Source: a virus (lineage: Duplodnaviria; Heunggongvirae; Uroviricota; Caudoviricetes). Taken from it: a DNA stretch of 64,000 nt. Shown piece by piece: positions 2,606 through 43,598 of the stretch. The notes beneath the pieces were generated by a model, which searched no databases, had not been told where the DNA came from, and saw only the letters and a program-made list of their open reading frames with translations. The position numbers were made by a program, and so were the translations under genes. The stretch is taken from IMG/VR virus record IMGVR_UViG_3300038443_000660, positions 66,082 through 130,081 of that record; one strand, given 5' to 3'. The first letter of the stretch is position 1; each line of letters begins with the position of its first letter.

Positions 2606-3214
2606 TCAATAATATATAATTTTTTCGATGATATCCCACAATTCGGCTTCGTCCATTTTCTTGGAGAATGGGCATACATCGGGAGCAACTACAGGCTTGA
2701 TAATTCTGGCGTAATCTTTGATAATTTCGCCTCTTGTCAGATAAGTTATCGTTGGTTCATGGTATTTAATTCTATGGAATGCATCAGCAGACAAAGCATA
2801 TTCAGAACCTTCGGTCAGACTAAAGCTGCACACCATAGAAATATCAACCTCTTTTAGAAAATGCGGAGGCTTGCCTGCATCTTCCATAGAACACGACACT
2901 TCAAATAATCCCAAATCAGTAAATAACATGGAATCATAAACGAAAATTTCATTAGTCAACGAACCTTTTAGAATTCGACTTCTAAAAGTATATCGGTGGT
3001 CGTGAATTTCTTCATCATCCAGAATCGGCATCAACTCTGGATGATAGAAATGAATTCGTTCGTATTTATTCAGCTTCAATTGAATGAAACCAAGGCCAAA
3101 ATAGTGTGGAGTACCAAGAGTTTTTAGATACTCCACATTATTCTTATACAGCTTGTATTCTTGTAGTTCTATTTCCATCGTTATCATTATCCCTTTTTCT
3201 ATGCTTATCGACAA
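2606..3214 (-). CDS. hypothetical protein with His cluster (possible metal-binding / cupin-like)
   Basis: 202 aa; HFYHPELMP...EEIHDHRYTF; the true start is probably an internal Met (~3178-3187) because of a 70-nt overlap with the HNH gene. Confidence 0.45.
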   Translation of the reverse strand: MSISIEKGIMITMEIELQEYKLYKNNVEYLKTLGTPHYFGLGFIQLKLNKYERIHFYHPELMPILDDEEIHDHRYTFRSRILKGSLTNEIFVYDSMLFTDLGLFEVSCSMEDAGKPPHFLKEVDISMVCSFSLTEGSEYALSADAFHRIKYHEPTITYLTRGEIIKDYARIIKPVVAPDVCPFSKKMDEAELWDIIEKIIYY

Positions 3215-3779
3215 TCAGGTTATTGGTTGAGAATGCTGGCAAAAATTGTGCCCAATTAGGGTCATCAATCACCAATGGATATTTTGCCCGAATTTCAATC
3301 ATTTGAAAGAAAGACGGTTCGAAAATTTTCTTTTTCGGTTGCCACTTACCTACAGGCATGGATGCACCTTTCATCCGGTTACATTCCGGGCAGGATGCCA
3401 CCAGATTGGTCCATTCGGTCTTACCGCCTTTTGACAATGGCACAACGTGGTCATCCGTCATGGTGTTGCGTTGATGCTTTTGCTTTGTCAAAGGCATGTC
3501 ACACCAAAAACATCTTGTGTTATCTCTGTAATACAAGGCTTCTTTCGTCAATCTGACTTTGTTGATGAATTTTTTGGCATGTTTGGTCACAACCACAGAT
3601 GGCCAGTACAGGTCACGCCGAGAGGGCGTTAAAATTGGTCTATCATACCAATAAACGACATCAACTTTCCCTGATAGATATCCACAAATAGCGTCCCTTG
3701 CCAACACTGTTGACAATGGAAAAACTGAATGCGGCATAAATGATTGGTCCAGAACCAATGTCCTTAAATTGATTTCCAT
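3144..3779 (-). CDS. HNH endonuclease
   Basis: CFWCDMPL...DHVVPLSKGGKTEWTNLVASCPECNRMKG is a canonical HNH motif. Confidence 0.7.
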   Translation of the reverse strand: MEINLRTLVLDQSFMPHSVFPLSTVLARDAICGYLSGKVDVVYWYDRPILTPSRRDLYWPSVVVTKHAKKFINKVRLTKEALYYRDNTRCFWCDMPLTKQKHQRNTMTDDHVVPLSKGGKTEWTNLVASCPECNRMKGASMPVGKWQPKKKIFEPSFFQMIEIRAKYPLVIDDPNWAQFLPAFSTNNLIVDKHRKRDNDNDGNRTTRIQAV

Positions 3780-12489: not shown

Positions 12490-12750
12490 TTAGACCATCC
12501 CTAGCGCCGCTTTATACAAATCCAAAATGGATTCTTCTTCCTGCCGTTCGGCAGCATCCTTCTTACGCATGGAGACAATCTGTCGGATGGCCTTGGTATC
12601 AAAACCAGTGCCCTTCGCCTCGGCATAGACTTCCTTGATGTCCGTGGAAATCGAATCCTTTTCTTCCGTCAACCGTTCAATTCGTTCGATGAATGCTCTT
12701 AGCTGGCCAGCCGCAACCGTCTGTGACGTTTCTGTAATTTCTTCGCTCAA
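12490..12750 (-). CDS. GapR-like DNA-binding protein (DUF2312/UPF0335)
   Basis: [49 protein letters not shown] matches the conserved GapR core. Confidence 0.65.
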
Positions 12751-13040: not shown

Positions 13041-13277
13041 TTACATCCTCGGATACATTGATTGCATTGATACTGGCGCACCATAACTTCCTGAACATGT
13101 TTCACAATGAAAAAGATGTTCTTCTACAGAGTAACACGAATCTGGAATGGAAATAGAAGACGTTTTTTCTGTAACCCTCATGAATCGACCACAGCTAGAA
13201 CACTTGATAGAATTCGAACAAATAATTACTTTGCGCATGATTGATACTCCATTTGAGGTATAGAATATCAATATCAT
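13041..13277 (-). CDS. zinc-ribbon protein
   Basis: 78 aa with CSSCGRF...CETCSG Cys pairs. Confidence 0.4.
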   Translation of the reverse strand: MILIFYTSNGVSIMRKVIICSNSIKCSSCGRFMRVTEKTSSISIPDSCYSVEEHLFHCETCSGSYGAPVSMQSMYPRM

Positions 13278-13286
13278 TAACTAAAG

Positions 13287-13646
13287 TCAATGAATTTTGT
13301 TTTTATTTGCTGATAGATTCCACATAAATGAATCGAATTTATGATATTCTACTAGTGTCCTTTTGACAGATGTATAGTAATAATAAGAACATTGTCCATT
13401 AGACCATTGTATTCTTATTTTTGAATAATCATGAAATTTTGGTTTTTTCGGTTTCTTTAATGGTTTTCTAAAAATTTTTCTAAAGAAATTCGATACTTTG
13501 AATGTTTGTATACGTCTTATATTACATTCTTTGGAATGGCACCACGGTATAATAACACCGTAGTCTCTAACATGTTCGGCATTGATTTCGAGGGAACTAA
13601 ATTCTCTATCCTCCATTGTATTTTCGAATCGATACATATTAACCAT
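13287..13646 (-). CDS. hypothetical protein
   Basis: 119 aa ORF. Confidence 0.35.
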   Translation of the reverse strand: MVNMYRFENTMEDREFSSLEINAEHVRDYGVIIPWCHSKECNIRRIQTFKVSNFFRKIFRKPLKKPKKPKFHDYSKIRIQWSNGQCSYYYYTSVKRTLVEYHKFDSFMWNLSANKNKIH

Positions 13647-14067
13647 TTGTAAACATCCTCAATTCATTTCTCTTGGCCATCAGTAGTTTTCCAAGATGAT
13701 TGTGACCGACACCATCACAAACGCCCCAAAATTTATCTCCCCATGTGTTCCCCTCTACCAATTCTTCATCGCCCGTCGCTAGTAATTTGTCGGCTAATTC
13801 TCGATCTTCAAATTTGAAATTCAGCCACATGCACATGACCGGAATTTTTATTTTATCCCAATCTTTTCGCATATCGCAAAACTGGCCAAGTATCTTAGCT
13901 TTACCCGGCGTTGGTGCGTTTCTGATTTCTTCCCGTTGGGCTTTGTTTCTGGTCTTACATGCCTGATATCCATGTTCAACGGTAGGATATAATTTACCAC
14001 CAAACACGATTGGTGATTCGTAAAAATTTGATAAGAAGCGATATTCGCCGTGGAAATTGTCAATCAT
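13639..14067 (-). CDS. NADAR-domain protein (YbiA-like N-glycosidase / ADP-ribose processing)
   Basis: FLSNFYESPIVFGGKLYPTVEHGYQACK...GNTWGDKFWGV is the NADAR/DUF1768 signature. Confidence 0.65.
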   Translation of the reverse strand: MIDNFHGEYRFLSNFYESPIVFGGKLYPTVEHGYQACKTRNKAQREEIRNAPTPGKAKILGQFCDMRKDWDKIKIPVMCMWLNFKFEDRELADKLLATGDEELVEGNTWGDKFWGVCDGVGHNHLGKLLMAKRNELRMFTNG

Positions 14068-15088
14068 TTTTTAATTCGTTGATTTCTTTGGCGTTTCCGA
14101 AAAACCAATGGGTAGCGGTTTGAACATGGTTTTCCCTGACATATTTCCCGACATTATTACGAAAATCTCTCCACAAGAAATCCCCCGCTCGTCGGATGAC
14201 AAAGCCTTCCACGTTGGCGGATTTTCCGTTAACTTCTCGGATGATTCTTTCAAGTTCTTTTTCGTCATATTTTCCTCGATACAGAATAGGAACGTGAGTG
14301 ATTCCTAATAGATTGAACCATTCTACAGTTTCATCCCATGGCAGACATCTCAAACCATGCCAAATAGAGAACCCCATGAGATATGACGGTAGATTATCAT
14401 ATTTGATTGAGTGTTTGGCATATAAATTTTCCGCACAAATCCGCCAATCATCCGGCAAGTCATAGGCAAAATTTTGTGCGAAATTTTTTGTCCAATCTCT
14501 GGACCAGTGATTGCGACCATCCACGGAACGAGCATGGATATATCCGTCCGAATAAATTGTGGTATTTTCACCATCCATTTTTTCGGTAATGACAACATCT
14601 TGACCGTGGAAAAAGTCCATGGATTTCATCATGCGGTCATCATCATTCATGCCGGGAGACATAACGACATGATAAGTCCGTGGGTACTTCATTCTGGTAG
14701 TGTATAAATCAAGAACACCACCTTGTTTCAAAATCTTTTGGACAGATTCGTCATCAAACAATTCGCCACGAACACGCTGCCCATTTTCTAAAACAATATC
14801 TCCCCATTTTGTGTAGGAAACATCGGAATAAAAATGTTCTGGCAAAGCAGGTTTCAATATGCCTGCATATTCTCTGATTTGCTCGACAGATATTAATGTT
14901 TGTTCACATTCAATATGATGCTTTTCACAAACGGAAGCGCCGTTTTCGAGATAGTAGCCGCCATCAGAGAACAATCGCCTTTCCAATATATGGTGAGCGT
15001 CAACAGCATCTTCACCACAGACAACGCATTTATGGTTGTCTCTGGCAAACACACCTTCTCTAAAATCGTCTCTGGACAGTAGTTTCAT
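14060..15088 (-). CDS. HNH endonuclease domain fused to RNA-ligase (Rnl-family nucleotidyltransferase) domain
   Basis: N-term HKCVVCGEDAVDAHHILERR...CEKHH (HNH); then EKMDGEN (KxDG motif I), VEGFVIRR (motif IV) and NVGKYVRENH (motif V). Confidence 0.55.
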   Translation of the reverse strand: MKLLSRDDFREGVFARDNHKCVVCGEDAVDAHHILERRLFSDGGYYLENGASVCEKHHIECEQTLISVEQIREYAGILKPALPEHFYSDVSYTKWGDIVLENGQRVRGELFDDESVQKILKQGGVLDLYTTRMKYPRTYHVVMSPGMNDDDRMMKSMDFFHGQDVVITEKMDGENTTIYSDGYIHARSVDGRNHWSRDWTKNFAQNFAYDLPDDWRICAENLYAKHSIKYDNLPSYLMGFSIWHGLRCLPWDETVEWFNLLGITHVPILYRGKYDEKELERIIREVNGKSANVEGFVIRRAGDFLWRDFRNNVGKYVRENHVQTATHWFFGNAKEINELKND

Positions 15089-15266
15089 AAAAAGAATCCT
15101 TTAGCATAATCAATACACTAAAGGATTAAGTTTGTCAATGTTAAATCAATGAATAACCGATTAACGCTACGAGTACGATTATCCAGAACAAACCAATGAA
15201 AAATGAAAATTCACCGTTTGAATATCTAAACCATATCTTAAACCAGTCTGGCATTTGTCGCTCTAA

Positions 15267-15969: not shown

Positions 15970-16521
15970 TTACATATCATCGGTAAAGAATTTTGCAGGA
16001 TTGTATAATTGATGAAGCCGCTTTAGAGATTCTTTTGCTGTTTTGTGAACGATAAATGTGCCACCAGAATTAACCCATAGGTCCATATATTTTGTTCTGT
16101 CATCAATTAGAATGTCGCCGGGAGAACAGTAAAAGTGTTTCTCTTTCGATTTACAAACAATCGTCGGAATGTTCGGAAAATGTTCTCTACCCCAACGAAA
16201 TTTTTGTAAATATCCCCATTCGGCTGGCGAACCGGTTAGAATAGCAACGTCAAAATTATTATCGATAGCCCATTCTGAAACACCAGATACCAATTCAAAA
16301 GCATCCGGCATAGGTTTGAGTCGTTCAAAGAAAAACGGGTCAATAGAATGTGTATGATTCCACATTTCTTCTTTGGTCATTCTTCGCCTAATTGTTTCAG
16401 CGTCAAATTCCCAAAATTCAAACCATCGCTGATTAAAATCTGCGAGTACCCCATCCATATCGATGTAAACTGTGTTGTCAGTCATAGGTTGTCTTTTATT
16501 TTGTGATGAACATATAATCAA
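15970..16521 (-). CDS. 5'(3')-deoxyribonucleotidase (NT5C/HAD family)
   Basis: VYIDMDGVLADFNQRWFEFW at the N-terminus is typical of NT5C-type deoxyribonucleotidases. Confidence 0.7.
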   Translation of the reverse strand: MIICSSQNKRQPMTDNTVYIDMDGVLADFNQRWFEFWEFDAETIRRRMTKEEMWNHTHSIDPFFFERLKPMPDAFELVSGVSEWAIDNNFDVAILTGSPAEWGYLQKFRWGREHFPNIPTIVCKSKEKHFYCSPGDILIDDRTKYMDLWVNSGGTFIVHKTAKESLKRLHQLYNPAKFFTDDM

Positions 16522-18460: not shown

Positions 18461-19621
18461 TTACTGGAATTCCGTTAAATTTTTGCCCTTGCGGTTCAAA
18501 TAATCTTCGGAAACGAATTTGAGAATCACTCTGCCTAGTTCATCGTTTCGCTGTTCCCTAATTGGAGTAACAACTACACCCTCACGGATATTTTCACCAT
18601 TTCCAACTACAGTTTCACCATCAACATATTTTGATACTTCCTCTTGCGTATCTACAATGTCAAGAATAGGGACATGTTGAATATCAAGTTGTTTGAAGAA
18701 CTCGTATTTAAGATCGGCATCCATGTAACCGGTAATGTCCATGAAATCAAATGCTCTAAAGGTTGGTGTTTTTTGTGAATAGTGCAAATCTTGAACACCA
18801 ACACCAAATATTTCACCAAACAAGAAGTATGGACTAATTGACACGCCGATTTGTTTGATACTGTCAATAATACCAGTTTCTTTTAGAGTTTTAACATATA
18901 AATTCTTTGCATTGTTTTCATTATCTTTGAAAACTAGCCCAGATGCACCGAAACCCTTGGAAAATACAACAATCGAATTGCCCTTTCCATCAGAAATCAA
19001 ATCAGGATGTTCAAGATTTGGAATGAATCCAATTCCACAGAAAGTTCCATGCAACTTTTCAGTAATGTAGAACGGACCAATATCGTTTGTCAAAACATTT
19101 GGATATTTTTTGACGTTTTCGATGTCGTATTTTGGAATAGACACGTAAGAGCCGATGTATAAAATTTCACCGTCCATATATGCTGGAATTACTGGTTCAT
19201 ACTTGGTAATACCCAAGAACTCTGAAACGTCATCCCCGACTTGTAGGCAATGTGAAGAATCGCCTACAGAATTATAAAGGATGTTCCCGCCCATTTTCTT
19301 GATTACGGGTAGTAGAATACCTTCTGATAGGACGTTCCGAAGACGAATTGGTCTTACTCGATTACCATCGGGTCCACCAAGCATCCCCTTGTTATTTTTT
19401 TCATCCCAGAAGCCATCTTTCAAAATGTAATCTGGAACGATAGAATCAGCCTGTACATAGACAACCCAATCGCCGGGATTATATCTATGTGAACCATCTT
19501 CAAGCTTGCCAGAAACAATTTGATAACTGAAACCTTTAAGTTTGATAATCGATAACCTATCAGCATTCGGATGGTCGATTACATTCTCGACCACCATTAC
19601 TTTTGATTCAAAATTTGCCAT
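18461..19621 (-). CDS. RNA ligase (Rnl family) with N-terminal tRNA-binding OB domain
   Basis: N-term VIDHPNADRLSIIKLKGF...LRNVLSEGIL (CsaA/Trbp111-type tRNA-binding domain); ITEKLHGT (motif I Lys), REGVVVTP (IV), RVILKFVSEDY (V). Confidence 0.6.
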   Translation of the reverse strand: MANFESKVMVVENVIDHPNADRLSIIKLKGFSYQIVSGKLEDGSHRYNPGDWVVYVQADSIVPDYILKDGFWDEKNNKGMLGGPDGNRVRPIRLRNVLSEGILLPVIKKMGGNILYNSVGDSSHCLQVGDDVSEFLGITKYEPVIPAYMDGEILYIGSYVSIPKYDIENVKKYPNVLTNDIGPFYITEKLHGTFCGIGFIPNLEHPDLISDGKGNSIVVFSKGFGASGLVFKDNENNAKNLYVKTLKETGIIDSIKQIGVSISPYFLFGEIFGVGVQDLHYSQKTPTFRAFDFMDITGYMDADLKYEFFKQLDIQHVPILDIVDTQEEVSKYVDGETVVGNGENIREGVVVTPIREQRNDELGRVILKFVSEDYLNRKGKNLTEFQ

Positions 19622-20414: not shown

Positions 20415-21455
20415 CTAGTATTTAGGTGTCGGTATCATATCCTCGATGATAGTTTTGACTTGTTCGGTTCTTTCTTCAAAATCAGAAGATGAAATAATTT
20501 CAAACGGTTTCTGCCATGCCTCCAATTGAGCCATGATTGAATGATAAAAATTCCAGCGCTTGGATTCGTTATCGGAAATTCGAAAACCGTCTTGCACCCA
20601 TGGAACAGTAGGAGCCAACAAAATATATTTGTCAATTTGTTGGTTTTCGGCAAACTTATATAATTCAGAGTTGTCATCATTTGGAAGCCAGATATCAGCA
20701 TACAGTGCGGTAATGAGTGCTTCCGTATCGGTAACGACAATTGGACACAACTCGTTCGAACGGGCCGAATCAATCATCATTTTTTGAGTTTTTTGAATTA
20801 TACGGAAATCCGTATAATCCAATTCATTTTTGCGATTGACGGCAAGAAAGCGCCCATATTCAGGAACCGGCCATGCAGTCAGGTCGCTTCCAAGTTCTTT
20901 GACAAGAGTCGATTTACCGGTTGATTCTGGACCAACAACAGCTACGACTTTCGACAAATCATGTCGAACATAAGACGGAAGCATGCTGAAGTTCACTTCA
21001 AAATTGTTTCTGATATCAGTAGCAGAGATTGGAACAGTTTCCCTGTCAGGGTCTACCGGCACCCAAACACAATTCAATTCCTTGGCGATTCGTTCACCAT
21101 ACAAATCAGAAGTGAATACATGTGATGGATGAATTGAAATGAAATTGAGAATGCGTTTTGTATCATCTAACCATCTAATCCAGTATGATTCATCAGTAAT
21201 CGTACCGAATGCATCCTTCTGAACGCTCTTATCGAATTCTTCTTGTTCGACAATAACAACATCACCACGACGATTATAATCGAAATTTGACACACATTTC
21301 CGAATCCAGCGCTTTCGAGCATCAAATGAATATGGGTCATTGTCATCAACACCAACAAGGACAATGAGATAATCACAATTTACCATTGCTGTGTTGATAA
21401 GGAACTCATGTCCCTTGGTGAACGGAAGAAATTTACCTAGAGTAAGACCAATCAT
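20415..21455 (-). CDS. nadR: NadR-like bifunctional NMN adenylyltransferase / ribosylnicotinamide kinase
   Basis: N-term GKFLPFTKGHEFLI (nucleotidyltransferase H-x-G-H-type motif); C-terminal P-loop VGPESTGKST. Confidence 0.65.
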   Translation of the reverse strand: MIGLTLGKFLPFTKGHEFLINTAMVNCDYLIVLVGVDDNDPYSFDARKRWIRKCVSNFDYNRRGDVVIVEQEEFDKSVQKDAFGTITDESYWIRWLDDTKRILNFISIHPSHVFTSDLYGERIAKELNCVWVPVDPDRETVPISATDIRNNFEVNFSMLPSYVRHDLSKVVAVVGPESTGKSTLVKELGSDLTAWPVPEYGRFLAVNRKNELDYTDFRIIQKTQKMMIDSARSNELCPIVVTDTEALITALYADIWLPNDDNSELYKFAENQQIDKYILLAPTVPWVQDGFRISDNESKRWNFYHSIMAQLEAWQKPFEIISSSDFEERTEQVKTIIEDMIPTPKY

Positions 21456-21944: not shown

Positions 21945-22652
21945 TTAAGATATGTTATGTGACCTGTAGAGTTTCCATGAATAGAACCACTGGTATAGCC
22001 CATAGAATGCATTACCAAGAAATAGCATATACTGGAACGCCAGAAGATACAATTCAGAAGTTGAAAATACATAGATTGAAATTACGTTAACAGCAATCCA
22101 CACAAGCCAGCATTCAAGTTTCTTGAAATTCATGAACCATTGGGCAATGACTGAAAACACCAGAATCGCACCATCAAACCCGGCAAGATTTCCACCATAA
22201 TATTCTGTTACTGTCTTTGCCCCATACCAAATAATAGGAACAAAAATGATTGCAGAAATTATTTGTGAAAAAGACAGATTTGATACATGAAGGTTATCAC
22301 GTTCACTCGGTCCATTACCACGCCACCAAACAAACCATCCAAGAATTTGAGCGGCGACGAAAAACACGGATTGTAGAAAAAAACTTGCCAGCAAGTTTTG
22401 TTGTAGACACAGTAGACCGATTAGCATTGATGCCGCAATACCGATTGGCCATTGCACAATACTTTGACGTGTAGCGAGATATACACAGGAAAAATTAAGA
22501 AGAACACAAGTGGCTTCGAATGATAAACTCGTATAATTTACATCATCACCAAACCAATTGAGATAATATCCAAGAAAATAGGAAATGCTAGTAAGACCAA
22601 GCCCTACTAGCATCCCTTCGATGAAATCACGATAATAAGAAGGTGTAAACAT
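21945..22652 (-). CDS. pnuC: PnuC-like nicotinamide riboside transporter
   Basis: 235 aa Trp-rich multi-TM protein of PnuC size, adjacent to NadR. Confidence 0.55.
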   Translation of the reverse strand: MFTPSYYRDFIEGMLVGLGLTSISYFLGYYLNWFGDDVNYTSLSFEATCVLLNFSCVYLATRQSIVQWPIGIAASMLIGLLCLQQNLLASFFLQSVFFVAAQILGWFVWWRGNGPSERDNLHVSNLSFSQIISAIIFVPIIWYGAKTVTEYYGGNLAGFDGAILVFSVIAQWFMNFKKLECWLVWIAVNVISIYVFSTSELYLLAFQYMLFLGNAFYGLYQWFYSWKLYRSHNIS

Positions 22653-26545: not shown

Positions 26546-26777
26546 AGAAGCGTGTGTTTTTCTGGAATTTCGTAATATTTCATTGAATTATTATATTCCA
26601 ATATCAGCCAACGTTAAAATGGGCGTCGAACCCATGTTTCCAGTTATCCAACCGGTGTCCTATCCACCTAGACGATTTAACTCAATGCAATCTTAGATCG
26701 GCAAATCCATTTCATGCATCGTGGCGACTGAACTATTTAAACATTGCCGTGTAGAAATAGTTCAATTCTGTTGTTGT

Positions 26778-30645: not shown

Positions 30646-31338
30646 TTATTTTAGAGTTTCCAGAATTTTCATGACTTTCGCCGCATCAATTTTTCCTTTA
30701 TAATGTTTCATCGCCTGTCCGACAAACCAGTTATAAAGTTGTGGGTTGAGTTTCGCTTTCTCCCACTGCTTATCATTTTCATTGATGACGTTTTTCAAAA
30801 ATATTTCAATTTCTTCGTTTGAAATATCTTCAAAAACATGTCGCTTACGAGCAACATCATATTCCAAGTTCTCATTCAAAATATCCGTCAGGATATTCAA
30901 TTTCTGCTTAAATTTCAATTCTGTATCGGATAGTAGAAAAACCAAATCATGAAATTTTACAGCGTTAATCAATGCTTTTCCGTGTAGCTTGTGGTCTTTA
31001 CCATAAACAGACACTGGACCAAGATACAACTTTATCGTTTCTGATACATAATCTATTGAATTTTCAAAAATAATTTGTAAATTAGCCAAGAGAATATGAA
31101 AATCAGGATGAAATCCATCGAAAATATTTTCGATATCATCTGAAATTAATGACTCAATATCGATTCCATGCTTCTCTTTGATATGTTTTTTGGGAGAATC
31201 AACAACCCAAGAAAATTTTTTGAACCAAGCTTCGTCATTCAATTTGGTCCAAACAGAAGAATATTCTTTAGTTTCATCGTCAAATGTTCGACCGGTTATC
31301 CAATCTCTATCTGTGCTGATAATCTGAATATGCTTCAT
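30646..31338 (-). CDS. protein with C-terminal GatB/YqeY-like domain
   Basis: C-terminus LYNWFVGQAMKHYKGKIDAAKVMKILETLK resembles the YqeY/GatB C-terminal motif. Confidence 0.4.
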   Translation of the reverse strand: MKHIQIISTDRDWITGRTFDDETKEYSSVWTKLNDEAWFKKFSWVVDSPKKHIKEKHGIDIESLISDDIENIFDGFHPDFHILLANLQIIFENSIDYVSETIKLYLGPVSVYGKDHKLHGKALINAVKFHDLVFLLSDTELKFKQKLNILTDILNENLEYDVARKRHVFEDISNEEIEIFLKNVINENDKQWEKAKLNPQLYNWFVGQAMKHYKGKIDAAKVMKILETLK

Positions 31339-31544: not shown

Positions 31545-32447
31545 TTACTTCAATTCATCCTTGATACCGGGCTTGTCTACATTTTTCAATGTATCATCGT
31601 TCATGTTCAGCATGAAATTGGAATCCGCACCCATAATCTTTGGCAGGATGCCATCCCACTTCTGAATCATCATGTATCGAACCAATGTAGTGGTCAACGA
31701 TTCGGTAAGAAGCTTATTGGCCTTCGCCTGTGCATCAGCTTCAAGAATGATAGATTCTGCCGTTCCTCTAGCTTCCTCAATCTTCTTTTGCGCTTCCGCC
31801 TTAGTCTGTTCGATTTCATTTTGACGCTGTTGTGTCTTTTGGGTTGCTTCAATCTTGGCATTGATAGAAGCGACAACATTATCAGGAAGCCTTAGCGTTC
31901 CTACCCAATAAACACGTTCGATAACGATACCGATTGGTGAAACCTGTTGACGGACTCGATCTTCAACGGAACGAATCAAATCTTCCTTACCCGCACCATA
32001 GACGGATTCAATCCTAAGCCTAGATGCTTCGGCCACCATCGCATCACGAACCATGTTACGGAGATAAATTGACGTGATTTCCTCAACACCACGGCGATAC
32101 TTCTGGAAAATGACCGGAACCATGTCAGGCTTGATTGAATACGAAATGCCAACATCGGCATTCACGTTCATACCTTCGACAGTTTGGAAAGTCAGAGATT
32201 CATCTTCTGTACCAGTTTCGTCAGGTTCACGAGTCCACACATAGTTCTGTGTAAACGTTGGGAAAACGTGAAGTTCCTGATTCCAGCCAACCCAATATCG
32301 TCCCGGCCCAAGGGCTTCCGCATCAACACCCTTGTCAGAACCATAAAGGTTGATACGAACGCCGACATTACCAGCCGGAACTTTTCCACATGCAGCAAGC
32401 ATGAGTGAAGCACCGATAATCGCTAAAACAGAATGCGCTTTCTTCAT
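31545..32447 (-). CDS. SPFH/Band-7 (prohibitin/HflK-like) lipoprotein
   Basis: Lipoprotein signal MKKAHSVLAIIGASLMLAACG; SPFH-type core followed by a coiled-coil Q/E/K-rich tail. Confidence 0.55.
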   Translation of the reverse strand: MKKAHSVLAIIGASLMLAACGKVPAGNVGVRINLYGSDKGVDAEALGPGRYWVGWNQELHVFPTFTQNYVWTREPDETGTEDESLTFQTVEGMNVNADVGISYSIKPDMVPVIFQKYRRGVEEITSIYLRNMVRDAMVAEASRLRIESVYGAGKEDLIRSVEDRVRQQVSPIGIVIERVYWVGTLRLPDNVVASINAKIEATQKTQQRQNEIEQTKAEAQKKIEEARGTAESIILEADAQAKANKLLTESLTTTLVRYMMIQKWDGILPKIMGADSNFMLNMNDDTLKNVDKPGIKDELK

Positions 32448-32669: not shown

Positions 32670-32885
32670 CTAATTCGCTCCATAAAAAATTGCTATCATA
32701 ACTGCAATGAACACGCAGATTACAAAGAAACCGATAACCATTTGATTACTAGTTGAAGTTGACGTTGAGGAAATCAACCAATCATCGTCTTTCCAGTCCG
32801 AAAACAAAGGTTTCACTTCTTTTTCGGAAGGTTTCTTGGTGAGAATGTCATCAAGAAATTTGGAAAGTTTATCAAGCATACCCAT
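32670..32885 (-). CDS. small membrane protein
   Basis: 71 aa with a C-terminal TM helix. Confidence 0.35.
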   Translation of the reverse strand: MGMLDKLSKFLDDILTKKPSEKEVKPLFSDWKDDDWLISSTSTSTSNQMVIGFFVICVFIAVMIAIFYGAN

Positions 32886-33999
32886 TTTTTATCTTCTCGT
32901 CAATCCATTTTGTTCTAATTCGTTTCAATTCTTTACCTAATTCTGGTCCCGGTTCAAAACCTTGTTGAATAAGTAACAAAGAACTACCAACCGGCCACGA
33001 ATCCAGATTTGGATAATCGTTAAAAAATTTGTTCCAAGCATCTGAATTTCGCATTACACCGACAGAAGCCAGATATTGCACCCATGCTCGTTTCTCGATG
33101 TTATTCAACGTGTAATCCAGAATATGATAATTGTCGGTTCTGGAATTGTTGAGAACAAAATATTGCTTGACAAAATCTTGTTCAACAGAAGACGCTTTAT
33201 AACGAGATTTCAGTACATGTAAGACATCTTCGTTGAAGTTAAAGAGCGCTATCAACCGCAACAGATAACTTTTATTGCGAAAATCATTGTAATGAAGACA
33301 CGAATGAGGAATATCGATATATGGTCCGATAGACCTTGACATAGCCTGAATGACAGGGAAATTTCCTATTTCCAAAATTTTTGTTAGTTCTGCCCAGATG
33401 CGTTCACCAGAGATAGATTTAAGACCATCGCCAAGCTTTTCGATGATAGCCAAATTGTCTCTAAGAGTCTGGTCATAAACAATAGTTTTCATCTTACCCA
33501 AGAACCTGAAATATCTCAAAATTCTTAAATAATCTTCCCGAATGCGATCTTCTGCATTACCCACAAATTGTAGATGGCATTGCTTCAAATCTCTCTTGCC
33601 ATCAAAATAATCATAAATTTCACCAAATCGGTCCATGAACATAGCATTGATTGTGAAATCACGGCGGGAAGCGTCCAACCTCCAATCATCGGTAAATTCC
33701 ACGACCGCATGGCGACCATCGGTTTCCTTGTCGATTCGTAATGTAGTTACTTCAAACGGAATTTTATCGACAACAATCGTTACCGTACCATGCTTAAGAC
33801 CGGTAGGAATGACTTCTTTATCAAGTCTAGTGAATATCTCGACAATTTGTTCTGGCAATGCCGTAGTAGCAATGTCGATATCATGCGGCTGGATACCGGA
33901 AAGAAAATCACGCACTGCACCACCGGCAATTCTGGCCTGAAAGCCAGAATTTTCAATCGTTTGCATAATCCATTCGGCAATGGGATTCAGAGATTTCAT
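32872..33999 (-). CDS. cca: tRNA nucleotidyltransferase (CCA-adding enzyme)
   Basis: ARIAGGAVRDFL...PHDIDIAT...TLRID...RRDFTINAM are class II CCA-adding head-domain motifs. Confidence 0.75.
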   Translation of the reverse strand: MKSLNPIAEWIMQTIENSGFQARIAGGAVRDFLSGIQPHDIDIATTALPEQIVEIFTRLDKEVIPTGLKHGTVTIVVDKIPFEVTTLRIDKETDGRHAVVEFTDDWRLDASRRDFTINAMFMDRFGEIYDYFDGKRDLKQCHLQFVGNAEDRIREDYLRILRYFRFLGKMKTIVYDQTLRDNLAIIEKLGDGLKSISGERIWAELTKILEIGNFPVIQAMSRSIGPYIDIPHSCLHYNDFRNKSYLLRLIALFNFNEDVLHVLKSRYKASSVEQDFVKQYFVLNNSRTDNYHILDYTLNNIEKRAWVQYLASVGVMRNSDAWNKFFNDYPNLDSWPVGSSLLLIQQGFEPGPELGKELKRIRTKWIDEKIKNGYA

Positions 34000-42412: not shown

Positions 42413-42874
42413 TTAAGGTTCCAATACTTCTTTCAACATTTCGATTGTGTCATTTAACTTGATATTGTTATATGATTCCCCAGAAGCATGATGTTCATAC
42501 CCGTCTAATTCGTCTCTGACATTTTCTAAAACTGGCAAAGTTTCTTTGACTAGTTTAAATAGACTACAAACAACATCAGCCAAGTCAGCAGAAGCTTTCG
42601 CTTCTCTATGTAACCATTGGGCGAGATATACGGGCGTCGATTCATCTACATGGCCGTCCAATTGATTGGCCACTTCATATACGTCACGTCCATTGATTGT
42701 CAACGATGTAATATCACCACCATAATTTTTTTCTTCAATTTTATTCACAATCTGGCTCTCAATATTTGATGAATGGAGTGACAGGAAGCCGCCGTTTATG
42801 TATAGTTGCGAAATATCTGTCCACAATCTTATTGTGGGCTTCAATCCCCACGTCCTTACCTTCAAGAAAATCAT
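42413..42874 (-). CDS. hypothetical protein (start uncertain)
   Basis: 153 aa ORF overlapping the nadE 3' end by ~115 nt; the true start may be downstream. Confidence 0.3.
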   Translation of the reverse strand: MIFLKVRTWGLKPTIRLWTDISQLYINGGFLSLHSSNIESQIVNKIEEKNYGGDITSLTINGRDVYEVANQLDGHVDESTPVYLAQWLHREAKASADLADVVCSLFKLVKETLPVLENVRDELDGYEHHASGESYNNIKLNDTIEMLKEVLEP

Positions 42875-43598
42875 CGATTTGGGAATAAGTCAGTCCAAAT
42901 GCAACTTCATCTGGTAATCCCGGCTTATTCGTTTCCAAATCGGCAGTCGGCACCTTATTGACCAGTTCATCTGGAATGTTCAACGCTTTACCAATTTTCA
43001 TGATTTGACGTTTATTTAAACCAGCGAGAGGCATAATATCAGCAGCGCCGTCACCAAATTTCGTAAAGAAACCCATTACAGCTTCGGCAGCATGGTCCGT
43101 TCCTACAACTAAGCCATTGGTTTCACTAGCAACGGCGTATTGTACAACCATACGTTGCCTTGCTTTGATATTACCCAAATTAAAATCGGATAGCATCTTA
43201 GAAGTACCCTCAAACAAGGTATTATCGACCGATGATGCTAAATCGTCAGTGCATGACTTGATATTGATTTCCAGTGTTCTATCCGGTTGGATAATTGATA
43301 AGGCATTACGAGCATCTTCTTTATCAATTTGCATACCATATGGCAAGCGGACGCCAATCATTGTAGCATCGTATTGATAGCATCGTAGAATGGTAACAGC
43401 ATTTCTAACCAGCACACCGGCGACCGTGGAATCCACACCACCAGAAATACCGATGACATATGTGTTGTGACCGGAATTTTGCAAAGTATCTACCAAAAAT
43501 CTTGTTCTAAGGCAAATTTCCTTCGACATGACGATTGATGGCCTGACACCGAAATGATTAATTATCAAGGTTTGTTCACTAGAAAGCATAATACACAT
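42759..43598 (-). CDS. nadE: NH3-dependent NAD+ synthetase
   Basis: PP-loop YVIGISGGVDS; NadE-like architecture; ~275 aa. Confidence 0.65.
   Translation of the reverse strand: MCIMLSSEQTLIINHFGVRPSIVMSKEICLRTRFLVDTLQNSGHNTYVIGISGGVDSTVAGVLVRNAVTILRCYQYDATMIGVRLPYGMQIDKEDARNALSIIQPDRTLEINIKSCTDDLASSVDNTLFEGTSKMLSDFNLGNIKARQRMVVQYAVASETNGLVVGTDHAAEAVMGFFTKFGDGAADIMPLAGLNKRQIMKIGKALNIPDELVNKVPTADLETNKPGLPDEVAFGLTYSQIDDFLEGKDVGIEAHNKIVDRYFATIHKRRLPVTPFIKY

Follow-up and report, generated by a model that had tools for sequence, protein, structure and literature searches.

What does a phage gain by encoding a nuclease and a nucleic acid-sealing enzyme in a single polypeptide? This question is raised by a gene at 14060..15088 on the minus strand of a 64,000-nucleotide stretch of the IMG/VR virus record IMGVR_UViG_3300038443_000660 (positions 66,082 to 130,081 of that record), a member of the Caudoviricetes; we refer to this whole stretch as the window, and it is part of a jumbo-phage-like genome. 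The gene, with its ATG at 15088 and its stop codon at 14060-14062, is one uninterrupted open reading frame (ORF) of 342 amino acids (aa), and its translation is a fusion protein in which an HNH nuclease domain is followed by a bridging module and an RNA ligase domain. We hold the identities of the two domains and the intactness of both active sites with high confidence. As a new lead toward the function of the fusion, we find that the HNH module and HD-Pnk, an end-healing partner of related ligases without an HNH domain, are mutually exclusive.

The protein divides into an HNH domain of the beta-beta-alpha-metal type with its zinc and catalytic residues present (aa 1-65; 14894..15088, minus), a family-specific bridging module recognizable by its conserved residues (aa 66-130; 14699..14893, minus) and a minimal ATP-dependent ligase nucleotidyltransferase domain with motifs I, III, IV and V (aa 131-342; 14063..14698, minus). 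Nearly the entire chain is covered by PHROG 24030, a 342-position profile annotated 'RNA ligase', which aligns at positions 1-335 with aa 1-333 (E=1.9e-135). The full-length structure is predicted with a pTM of 0.85 and confident linkers, and both domains are supported by sequence as well as by this structure prediction. The initial annotation of this DNA, made from its letters and a list of ORFs, had proposed an HNH endonuclease and an RNA ligase in one chain at 14060-15088. The single ORF, the matches to Pfam PF09414 and to HNH PHROGs, and the presence of every string that it quoted bear this out; the coordinates are correct, and the only correction concerns the strand, which is minus.

The first 60 residues of the protein contain the strings C21-V-V-C24, D30-A-H32-H33, N49 and C54-E-K-H57-H58, in which C21, C24, C54 and H57 are the zinc ligands while H32/H33, N49 and H58, together with E62, make up the catalytic set (the H33 codon lies at 14990-14992). 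About ten PHROGs annotated 'HNH endonuclease' match aa 8-64 (E=1e-6 to 1e-3), searches of NCBIfam and of PDB sequences both lead to the IscB HNH domain, and fold comparison of the N-terminal part returns IscB (8.3), EcoKMcrA (8.0) and the HNH protein of phage GVE2 (7.8); this part of the protein has the beta-beta-alpha-metal fold that defines the HNH superfamily. H33 aligns with the second histidine of the 'HH' pair in IscB, and N49 and H58 align too. The IscB residue equivalent to H33 is the one that is mutated to inactivate the IscB HNH domain.

Conservation of these residues extends across the family. In alignment A1, comprising 61 homologs with 57-94% identity, C21, C24, D30, H32, H33, N49, C54, H58 and E62 are invariant. 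We extended this analysis to a residue census of 270 retrieved homologs aligned to the family profile, which include 120 close homologs and distant representatives of 50%-identity clusters. The zinc and catalytic sets are both intact in 119 of the 120 close homologs listed and in 81 of the 97 cluster representatives that have the N-terminal domain. Among these 97, H33 is kept in 91, N49 in 95 and H58 in 89, while C21, C24 and C54 are each conserved in at least 94; position 57 is His in 52 and Cys in 41, a split that fits a fourth zinc ligand. That catalytic and zinc residues remain intact together in 81 of 97 representatives argues for selection on nuclease chemistry and not on the fold alone. 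Thus, the catalytic His and Asn by which the initial annotation proposed to tell an HNH domain from a generic zinc ribbon are in place, and its alternative of a degenerate zinc-binding module serving substrate recognition only is disfavored. A comparison with the defence models of PADLOC-DB gave no match to the protein at E<=0.01.

The ligase domain is similarly well preserved. Pfam RNA_ligase (PF09414) matches aa 164-317 (E=7e-32; 27-bit cut-off), and the strings E-K170-MDGEN, V-E294-GFVIRR and G-K315-YVRENH mark three of its motifs: motif I is K170-M-D172-G173 (the K170 codon lies at 14579-14581), motif III is E220-N221, motif IV is E294-G295 and motif V runs from K315 to R318. Together with the nucleotidyltransferase fold, motifs III, IV and V place the domain in the covalent nucleotidyltransferase superfamily, and K170 supplies the adenylatable lysine expected in motif I, the residue whose absence would have counted against the initial annotation. 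K170, D172, G173, E220, N221, E294, G295, K315 and R318 are invariant in A1, and among 110 representatives K170 is kept in 106 and G173 in 109. Stand-alone homologs of 206-211 aa start at 'KYPRTxH', equivalent to aa 133, which indicates where the ligase domain begins. The chain ends about 25 residues past motif V and has no Rnl2-type C-terminal domain, and an Rnl5-type N-terminal OB domain is absent as well, with no PHA02142 or OB match in profile searches. When phmmer and the family profile were run against solved structures, the IscB HNH domain was the only hit and no ligase was found; the ligase was placed by fold comparison. The bridging module that joins the two domains carries the conserved residues P83, Y87, D89, K94, W95, G96, R105, G108, F111, D113, Q117 and K118 and has no structural match of its own. 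Separately, five longer homologs of 530-743 aa (P0122, P0128, P0131, P0136 and P0145) match the protein in two pieces with a break near aa 175; in P0122 the insertion lies right after motif I (KMDGE|C...HN|C) and looks like an intein in the ligase active site.

The distinction between fused and HNH-less forms is reflected in their gene neighborhoods. A locus scan with one genome per species, using A1 as the query (a more diverse alignment, A2, was too variable), yielded 80 loci, of which 20 encode full-length fusions and about 60 the ligase domain only, with 45-51% identity to aa 131-330. With BLAST for one kinase type, a P-loop kinase adjacent or fused to the ligase was identified at 36 of these 60 loci, either as a 420-aa protein directly downstream whose gene often overlaps the ligase gene, as a 320-aa protein directly upstream (Paenibacillus, Brevibacillus and Lysinibacillus), or as a C-terminal fusion (Streptomyces). 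Pfam recognizes AAA_33 in 18 and HD in 17 of these kinase partners, a composition that indicates the HD-Pnk end-healing architecture. By contrast, a kinase of this type was found beside none of the 20 HNH-fused genes (Fisher p=6e-7), and in the window neither an HD nor a P-loop kinase gene adjoins the HNH-ligase gene. The 20 fusion loci share no recurrent neighbor of any other kind; RtcB is present in two related assemblies and HAD_SAK_2 once. In actinomycetes (Actinosynnema, Saccharothrix, Nonomuraea and Streptomyces; loci L057, L068, L070, L072, L074, L081 and L083), the ligase-only domain resides within proteins of 560-1250 aa, some of them with N-terminal extensions. A C-terminal P-loop kinase segment in four of these (L057, L070, L074 and L083) gives a single chain for sealing plus kinase, while the kinase search had no match in L072 and L081.

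The fusion itself is neither rare nor new. A protein search retrieved 5286 homologs at E<=1e-5, and all 120 matches listed are full length with 57-94% identity; an exhaustive search of 50% cluster representatives gave 2300 at E<=1e-3 and 485 at E<=1e-30. HNH-ligase fusions with the bridging module account for 174 of the 270 sampled homologs and come from phages, an archaeal virus and bacteria. The architecture persists down to 29-38% identity, the archaeal virus included, and the order of the domains never varies. Among deposited phage records the best match is the full-length protein of Salicola phage SCTP-2 (60% identity); full-length proteins are also encoded by Ralstonia phage RsoM2USA, the Caulobacter Bertelyvirus group, Acinetobacter phage ME3 and several uncultured megaphages. 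The homolog in the archaeal virus HGTV-1, gene 233, is full length at 29% identity and is annotated 'RNA ligase; HNH endonuclease domain'. Bacterial chromosomes and assemblies of many phyla, including Leptospira, Achromobacter, Pararhizobium and Croceicoccus, carry the fusion as well. At the nucleotide level, the 10 kb surrounding the gene gave no megablast match among deposited phages, so the phage itself is absent from that collection. A neighbor-joining tree of the ligase domain is star-like with HNH-bearing and HNH-less forms interleaved and does not distinguish a single origin of the fusion from several. Ligase-domain homologs also occur within giant multi-domain proteins of 940-2792 aa that resemble phage conflict ('polyvalent') proteins. 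Three contigs of 211-427 kb (L009, L012 and L017), binned as a Thermoplasmatota archaeon, a Bacteroidota bacterium and Sediminibacterium, respectively, have the HNH-ligase gene among many short co-oriented ORFs and look like jumbo-phage contigs mis-binned into metagenome-assembled genomes. HNH-Rnl2 fusions were described in section 3.4.9 of Iyer, Anantharaman, Krishnan, Burroughs and Aravind (2021; PMC7824862), where Burroughs and Aravind (2016) are cited for them. Given this description, PHROG 24030 and the HGTV-1 annotation, the label 'unusual' that the fusion had received does not hold: the architecture is known and widespread, and the window protein adds one family member and nothing beyond that membership.

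What, then, might the two activities do together? HNH enzymes cleave to leave 3'-OH and 5'-phosphate ends, which are the ends that this class of ligase requires, and cutting and rejoining by one chain would therefore be chemically coherent. In our model, the ligase domain would react with ATP to form Lys170-AMP, pass the AMP to a 5'-phosphate and seal the break by attack of a 3'-OH, as we infer from chemistry that is conserved across the covalent nucleotidyltransferase superfamily. The most likely job of the protein is the repair of RNA breaks, for example in tRNAs cut by host defence nucleases; this is suggested by the location of the gene in a jumbo-phage island of tRNA, RNA-repair and NAD-metabolism genes. 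The HNH domain, held by the bridging module, would cut back a damaged or blocked end to provide the 3'-OH and 5'-phosphate for the ligase, thereby standing in for the HD-Pnk phosphoesterase/kinase found with the HNH-less relatives, a replacement to which their complementary distribution points. We put the general form of this model, a bifunctional nucleic acid repair enzyme in which HNH prepares ends for the ligase, only slightly short of an even chance. The narrower proposal that HNH is the end-healing module is more tentative. More doubtful still is a self-sufficient 'trim-and-seal' RNA repair in which HNH removes 2',3'-cyclic-phosphate and 5'-OH ends and the ligase reseals, a mechanism that would explain why HD-Pnk is missing wherever HNH is present. 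The earlier suggestion that the protein excises a damaged anticodon loop or processes the phage's own tRNAs received no direct support.

Several observations weigh against HNH as a preparer of ends. Nucleolytic healing shortens the RNA, which would be harmful in a tRNA anticodon loop unless nucleotides were re-added. The phage encodes separate end-healing enzymes (HAD_PNKP and 2H-SAK), so that an HNH domain is not obviously needed for this purpose, and the structural neighbors of the HNH domain are all DNA endonucleases or nickases, none of them an RNA end-trimmer. About ten divergent representatives have lost the HNH catalytic residues while retaining K170. The complementary distribution of HNH and HD-Pnk was seen in 80 loci with BLAST for one kinase type, and full-text literature searches turned up no biochemical study of any member of the HNH-ligase family. 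Finally, the one published biochemical account that the literature searches turned up concerns the Runella ligase, which matches the operon layout of the ligase-HD-Pnk pairs and would by that layout be a relative; it is reported to become adenylylated but to seal none of the standard 3'-OH/5'-phosphate substrates tried. The substrate of this type of ligase may accordingly be unconventional.

The same DNA-directed HNH neighbors, namely IscB, McrA-type restriction enzymes, the GVE2 nickase and Cap5, would fit a protein with two independent activities, in which HNH serves as a DNase weapon against the DNA of the host or of competing phages while the ligase repairs RNA, as put forward in the section of Iyer et al. 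on these fusions (PMC7824862, section 3.4.9). The occurrence of ligase-domain homologs in the 940-2792-aa proteins resembling polyvalent proteins would also be in line with such a division of labor. We nevertheless regard it as unlikely, because the architecture is rigid, with an invariant domain order and a conserved bridging module, and because the fusion gene stands alone in bacterial chromosomes, with neither an immunity gene nor a recurrent neighbor, where a free DNase would be dangerous; moreover, independent activities leave the absence of HD-Pnk alongside HNH unexplained. A few divergent members that keep the domain and the ligase lysine but have lost HNH catalytic residues would fit HNH and the bridging module acting mainly as a nucleic acid clamp, which would hold the break in position for the ligase and cleave little or not at all. 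This minimal ligase has no other substrate-binding domain, and the clamp would do for it what the C-terminal domain does in T4 Rnl2 or the N-terminal OB domain in Rnl5; the Lys, Arg and Trp residues conserved in the bridging module could contribute to it. An accessory N-terminal module followed by a ligase domain with its lysine at position 170 also parallels the layout of NgrRnl, whose nucleophile is Lys170 as well. A clamp is improbable, however, given that 119 of 120 close homologs and about 84% of the distant ones retain the general base His33 together with Asn49 and His58, which is more than a zinc-stabilized fold needs, and given that ligase-only relatives exist without any N-terminal module.

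That the substrate is DNA or an RNA-DNA hybrid is a further alternative; the protein would then nick and reseal, or seal nicks with a 3'-OH ribonucleotide, in the maintenance or repair of the phage genome. Ligases of the Rnl2 and Rnl5 families seal nicks in duplexes, the HNH relatives are DNA nickases and endonucleases, and at one locus, that of HGTV-1, a DNA ligase and a DNA methyltransferase are encoded nearby. Against this, the gene lies among tRNA, RNA-repair and ADP-ribose-processing genes in this phage clade, and the partner of the ligase-only relatives is HD-Pnk, which heals RNA and DNA ends and is linked with Tpt1 in Runella; we find a DNA or hybrid substrate quite improbable. Mobile elements do visit this gene, as the inteins in some ligase homologs suggest, and the window has free-standing HNH genes of its own, one of them at 3147-3779, which brings up an HNH domain that is a selfish homing endonuclease fused in frame by chance. 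Homing endonucleases would be expected to occur patchily; the presence of the fusion in 174 of 270 sampled homologs, spread over phages, bacteria and an archaeal virus, is the reverse of this and largely refutes such an origin, which we consider very improbable.

The gene neighborhood in the window is informative about the phage clade. The ATG of a NADAR gene (13639..14067, minus; Pfam NADAR E=1.3e-24) overlaps the ligase stop by 8 nt (14060-14067), and from this start/stop overlap the two genes are probably co-translated. Next in line on the minus strand, the ORF list has a 119-aa ORF with no family match that starts at an 8-nt overlap with the NADAR stop (13639-13646); ligase, NADAR and this ORF are thus chained by 8-nt overlaps (13287-14067, minus). 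A 78-aa Cys-rich ORF (13041-13277) follows. In the closest long contigs, L087 and L089 (75-78% identity), the gene order is kept, with an Rnl5-type ligase first and, some distance on, a run of NT5C, one further gene, HNH-ligase, a small ORF, NADAR and DUF4170; past DUF4170, L087 has HAD_SAK_2 and then Macro and GapR, and L089 has Macro and GapR without HAD_SAK_2. The HNH-ligase gene of this phage clade therefore belongs to an island for RNA repair and ADP-ribose processing. We also considered NADAR as a general partner of the fusion and rejected it, as NADAR is common in unrelated phages and the linkage is clade-specific; in megaphage LR756501, the one record with comparable positions, NADAR is far from the ligase-domain homolog (aa 129-340).

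On the other side of the gene, a terminator-like scan identified a 14-bp RNA hairpin at 15095..15127 on the minus strand (-15.4 kcal/mol, z=-4.3). It ends 6 nt 5' of the ligase ATG, its 3' arm holds an AAAGGA ribosome-binding site, a U-run comes after it, and a TTGACA box lies just upstream. The hairpin could serve either to terminate the upstream gene or to control translation. At the equivalent place, contig L089 has a TTGACA box and another, stronger hairpin (-33 kcal/mol).

Beyond these immediate neighbors, the window contains 19 tRNA genes, and almost all of its genes are on the minus strand. A second RNA ligase, Rnl5-like, is encoded at 18461-19621 (minus), 3.4 kb from the HNH-ligase; it combines an N-terminal PHA02142 OB-fold with PF09414, matches NgrRnl (E=4e-13) and has no significant similarity to the HNH-ligase, and the pair of an Rnl5-type ligase and an HNH-ligase is kept in L087 and L089. 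Other genes in the window code for an HAD_PNKP phosphatase (217-672), GapR (12490-12750), an NT5C-type HAD phosphatase (15970-16521), a NadR-like enzyme (20415-21455), a PnuC transporter (21945-22652), a GatB/YqeY-like protein (30649-31338), a CCA-adding enzyme (32875-33999) and NAD synthase (42762-43598), and matches to a 2H-SAK phosphoesterase, PTH2 and a metallophosphoesterase fall within the window at unmapped positions. At 26610-26683 (minus), ARAGORN reports a tRNA-like gene of undetermined identity with a two-base 'anticodon' (ga), perhaps a pseudo-tRNA or else a tRNA whose anticodon loop is unusual. The window also has two free-standing HNH endonuclease genes (Pfam HNH E=1e-11), including that at 3147-3779 (minus), and two T5orf172/GIY-YIG-like genes, all of which are probably mobile nuclease genes. 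In Leptospira (L004, 3865-5109) and in HGTV-1 (gene 229; L086, 3198-4100), only a few genes separate an SPFH/Band_7 gene from the HNH-ligase, and the window has one at 31548-32447 (minus), 17 kb from the HNH-ligase; this co-occurrence may be coincidence.

In the conflict between phages and the host defence nucleases that cut tRNAs, RNA ligases hold a central place. Should nuclease and ligase work on one and the same molecule, the fusion would represent a new way to prepare broken RNA ends and might illuminate the failure of the Runella ligase on standard substrates; trim-and-seal, if true, would be a way of healing ends that has yet to be demonstrated in RNA repair. If instead the activities are independent, the protein would be one more multi-tool phage conflict protein.

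How does the fusion compare with known systems? An end-resecting or end-healing metallo-nuclease and an ATP-dependent ligase are joined in one chain in bacterial LigD, which combines ligase, polymerase and 3'-phosphoesterase. The likeness would be a functional analogy only: the LigD nuclease fold is unrelated, and LigD has a polymerase and repairs DNA double-strand breaks. The HNH domains of IscB/Cas9, the McrA-type enzymes and the GVE2 nickase share with the window protein the beta-beta-alpha-metal fold, the CxxC...Cxx[H/C] zinc site and the HH...N...H catalytic residues; these are guided or modification-dependent DNA nucleases, whereas the window HNH is joined to a ligase via a private bridging module. 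With T4 RNA ligase 2 (gp24.1) of the Rnl2 family the identity is 15%, and the window protein has the N-terminal HNH domain instead of the Rnl2 C-terminal domain, while the Rnl5 ligases, Naegleria NgrRnl and Deinococcus DraRnl, have an N-terminal OB fold where the window protein has HNH. Closer in sequence are the ligases of the ligase-HD-Pnk operons, stand-alone proteins of about 210 aa that are 45-51% identical to window aa 131-330 and adjoin an HD and P-loop kinase gene; they have neither HNH nor the bridging module, and the window gene in turn has no HD-Pnk neighbor. The Runella slithyformis ligase ORF is described by Munir and Shuman (2017) as just upstream of HD-Pnk with overlapping ends, and by this operon layout the Runella ligase may belong to the family. 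Closest of all are the PHROG 24030 fusions, HGTV-1 gene 233, Salicola SCTP-2 gp101, Caulobacter CcrBL9 gp226 and Acinetobacter ME3 gp200, which have the same three-part architecture over their full length at 29-60% identity, and from which the window protein differs in sequence only.

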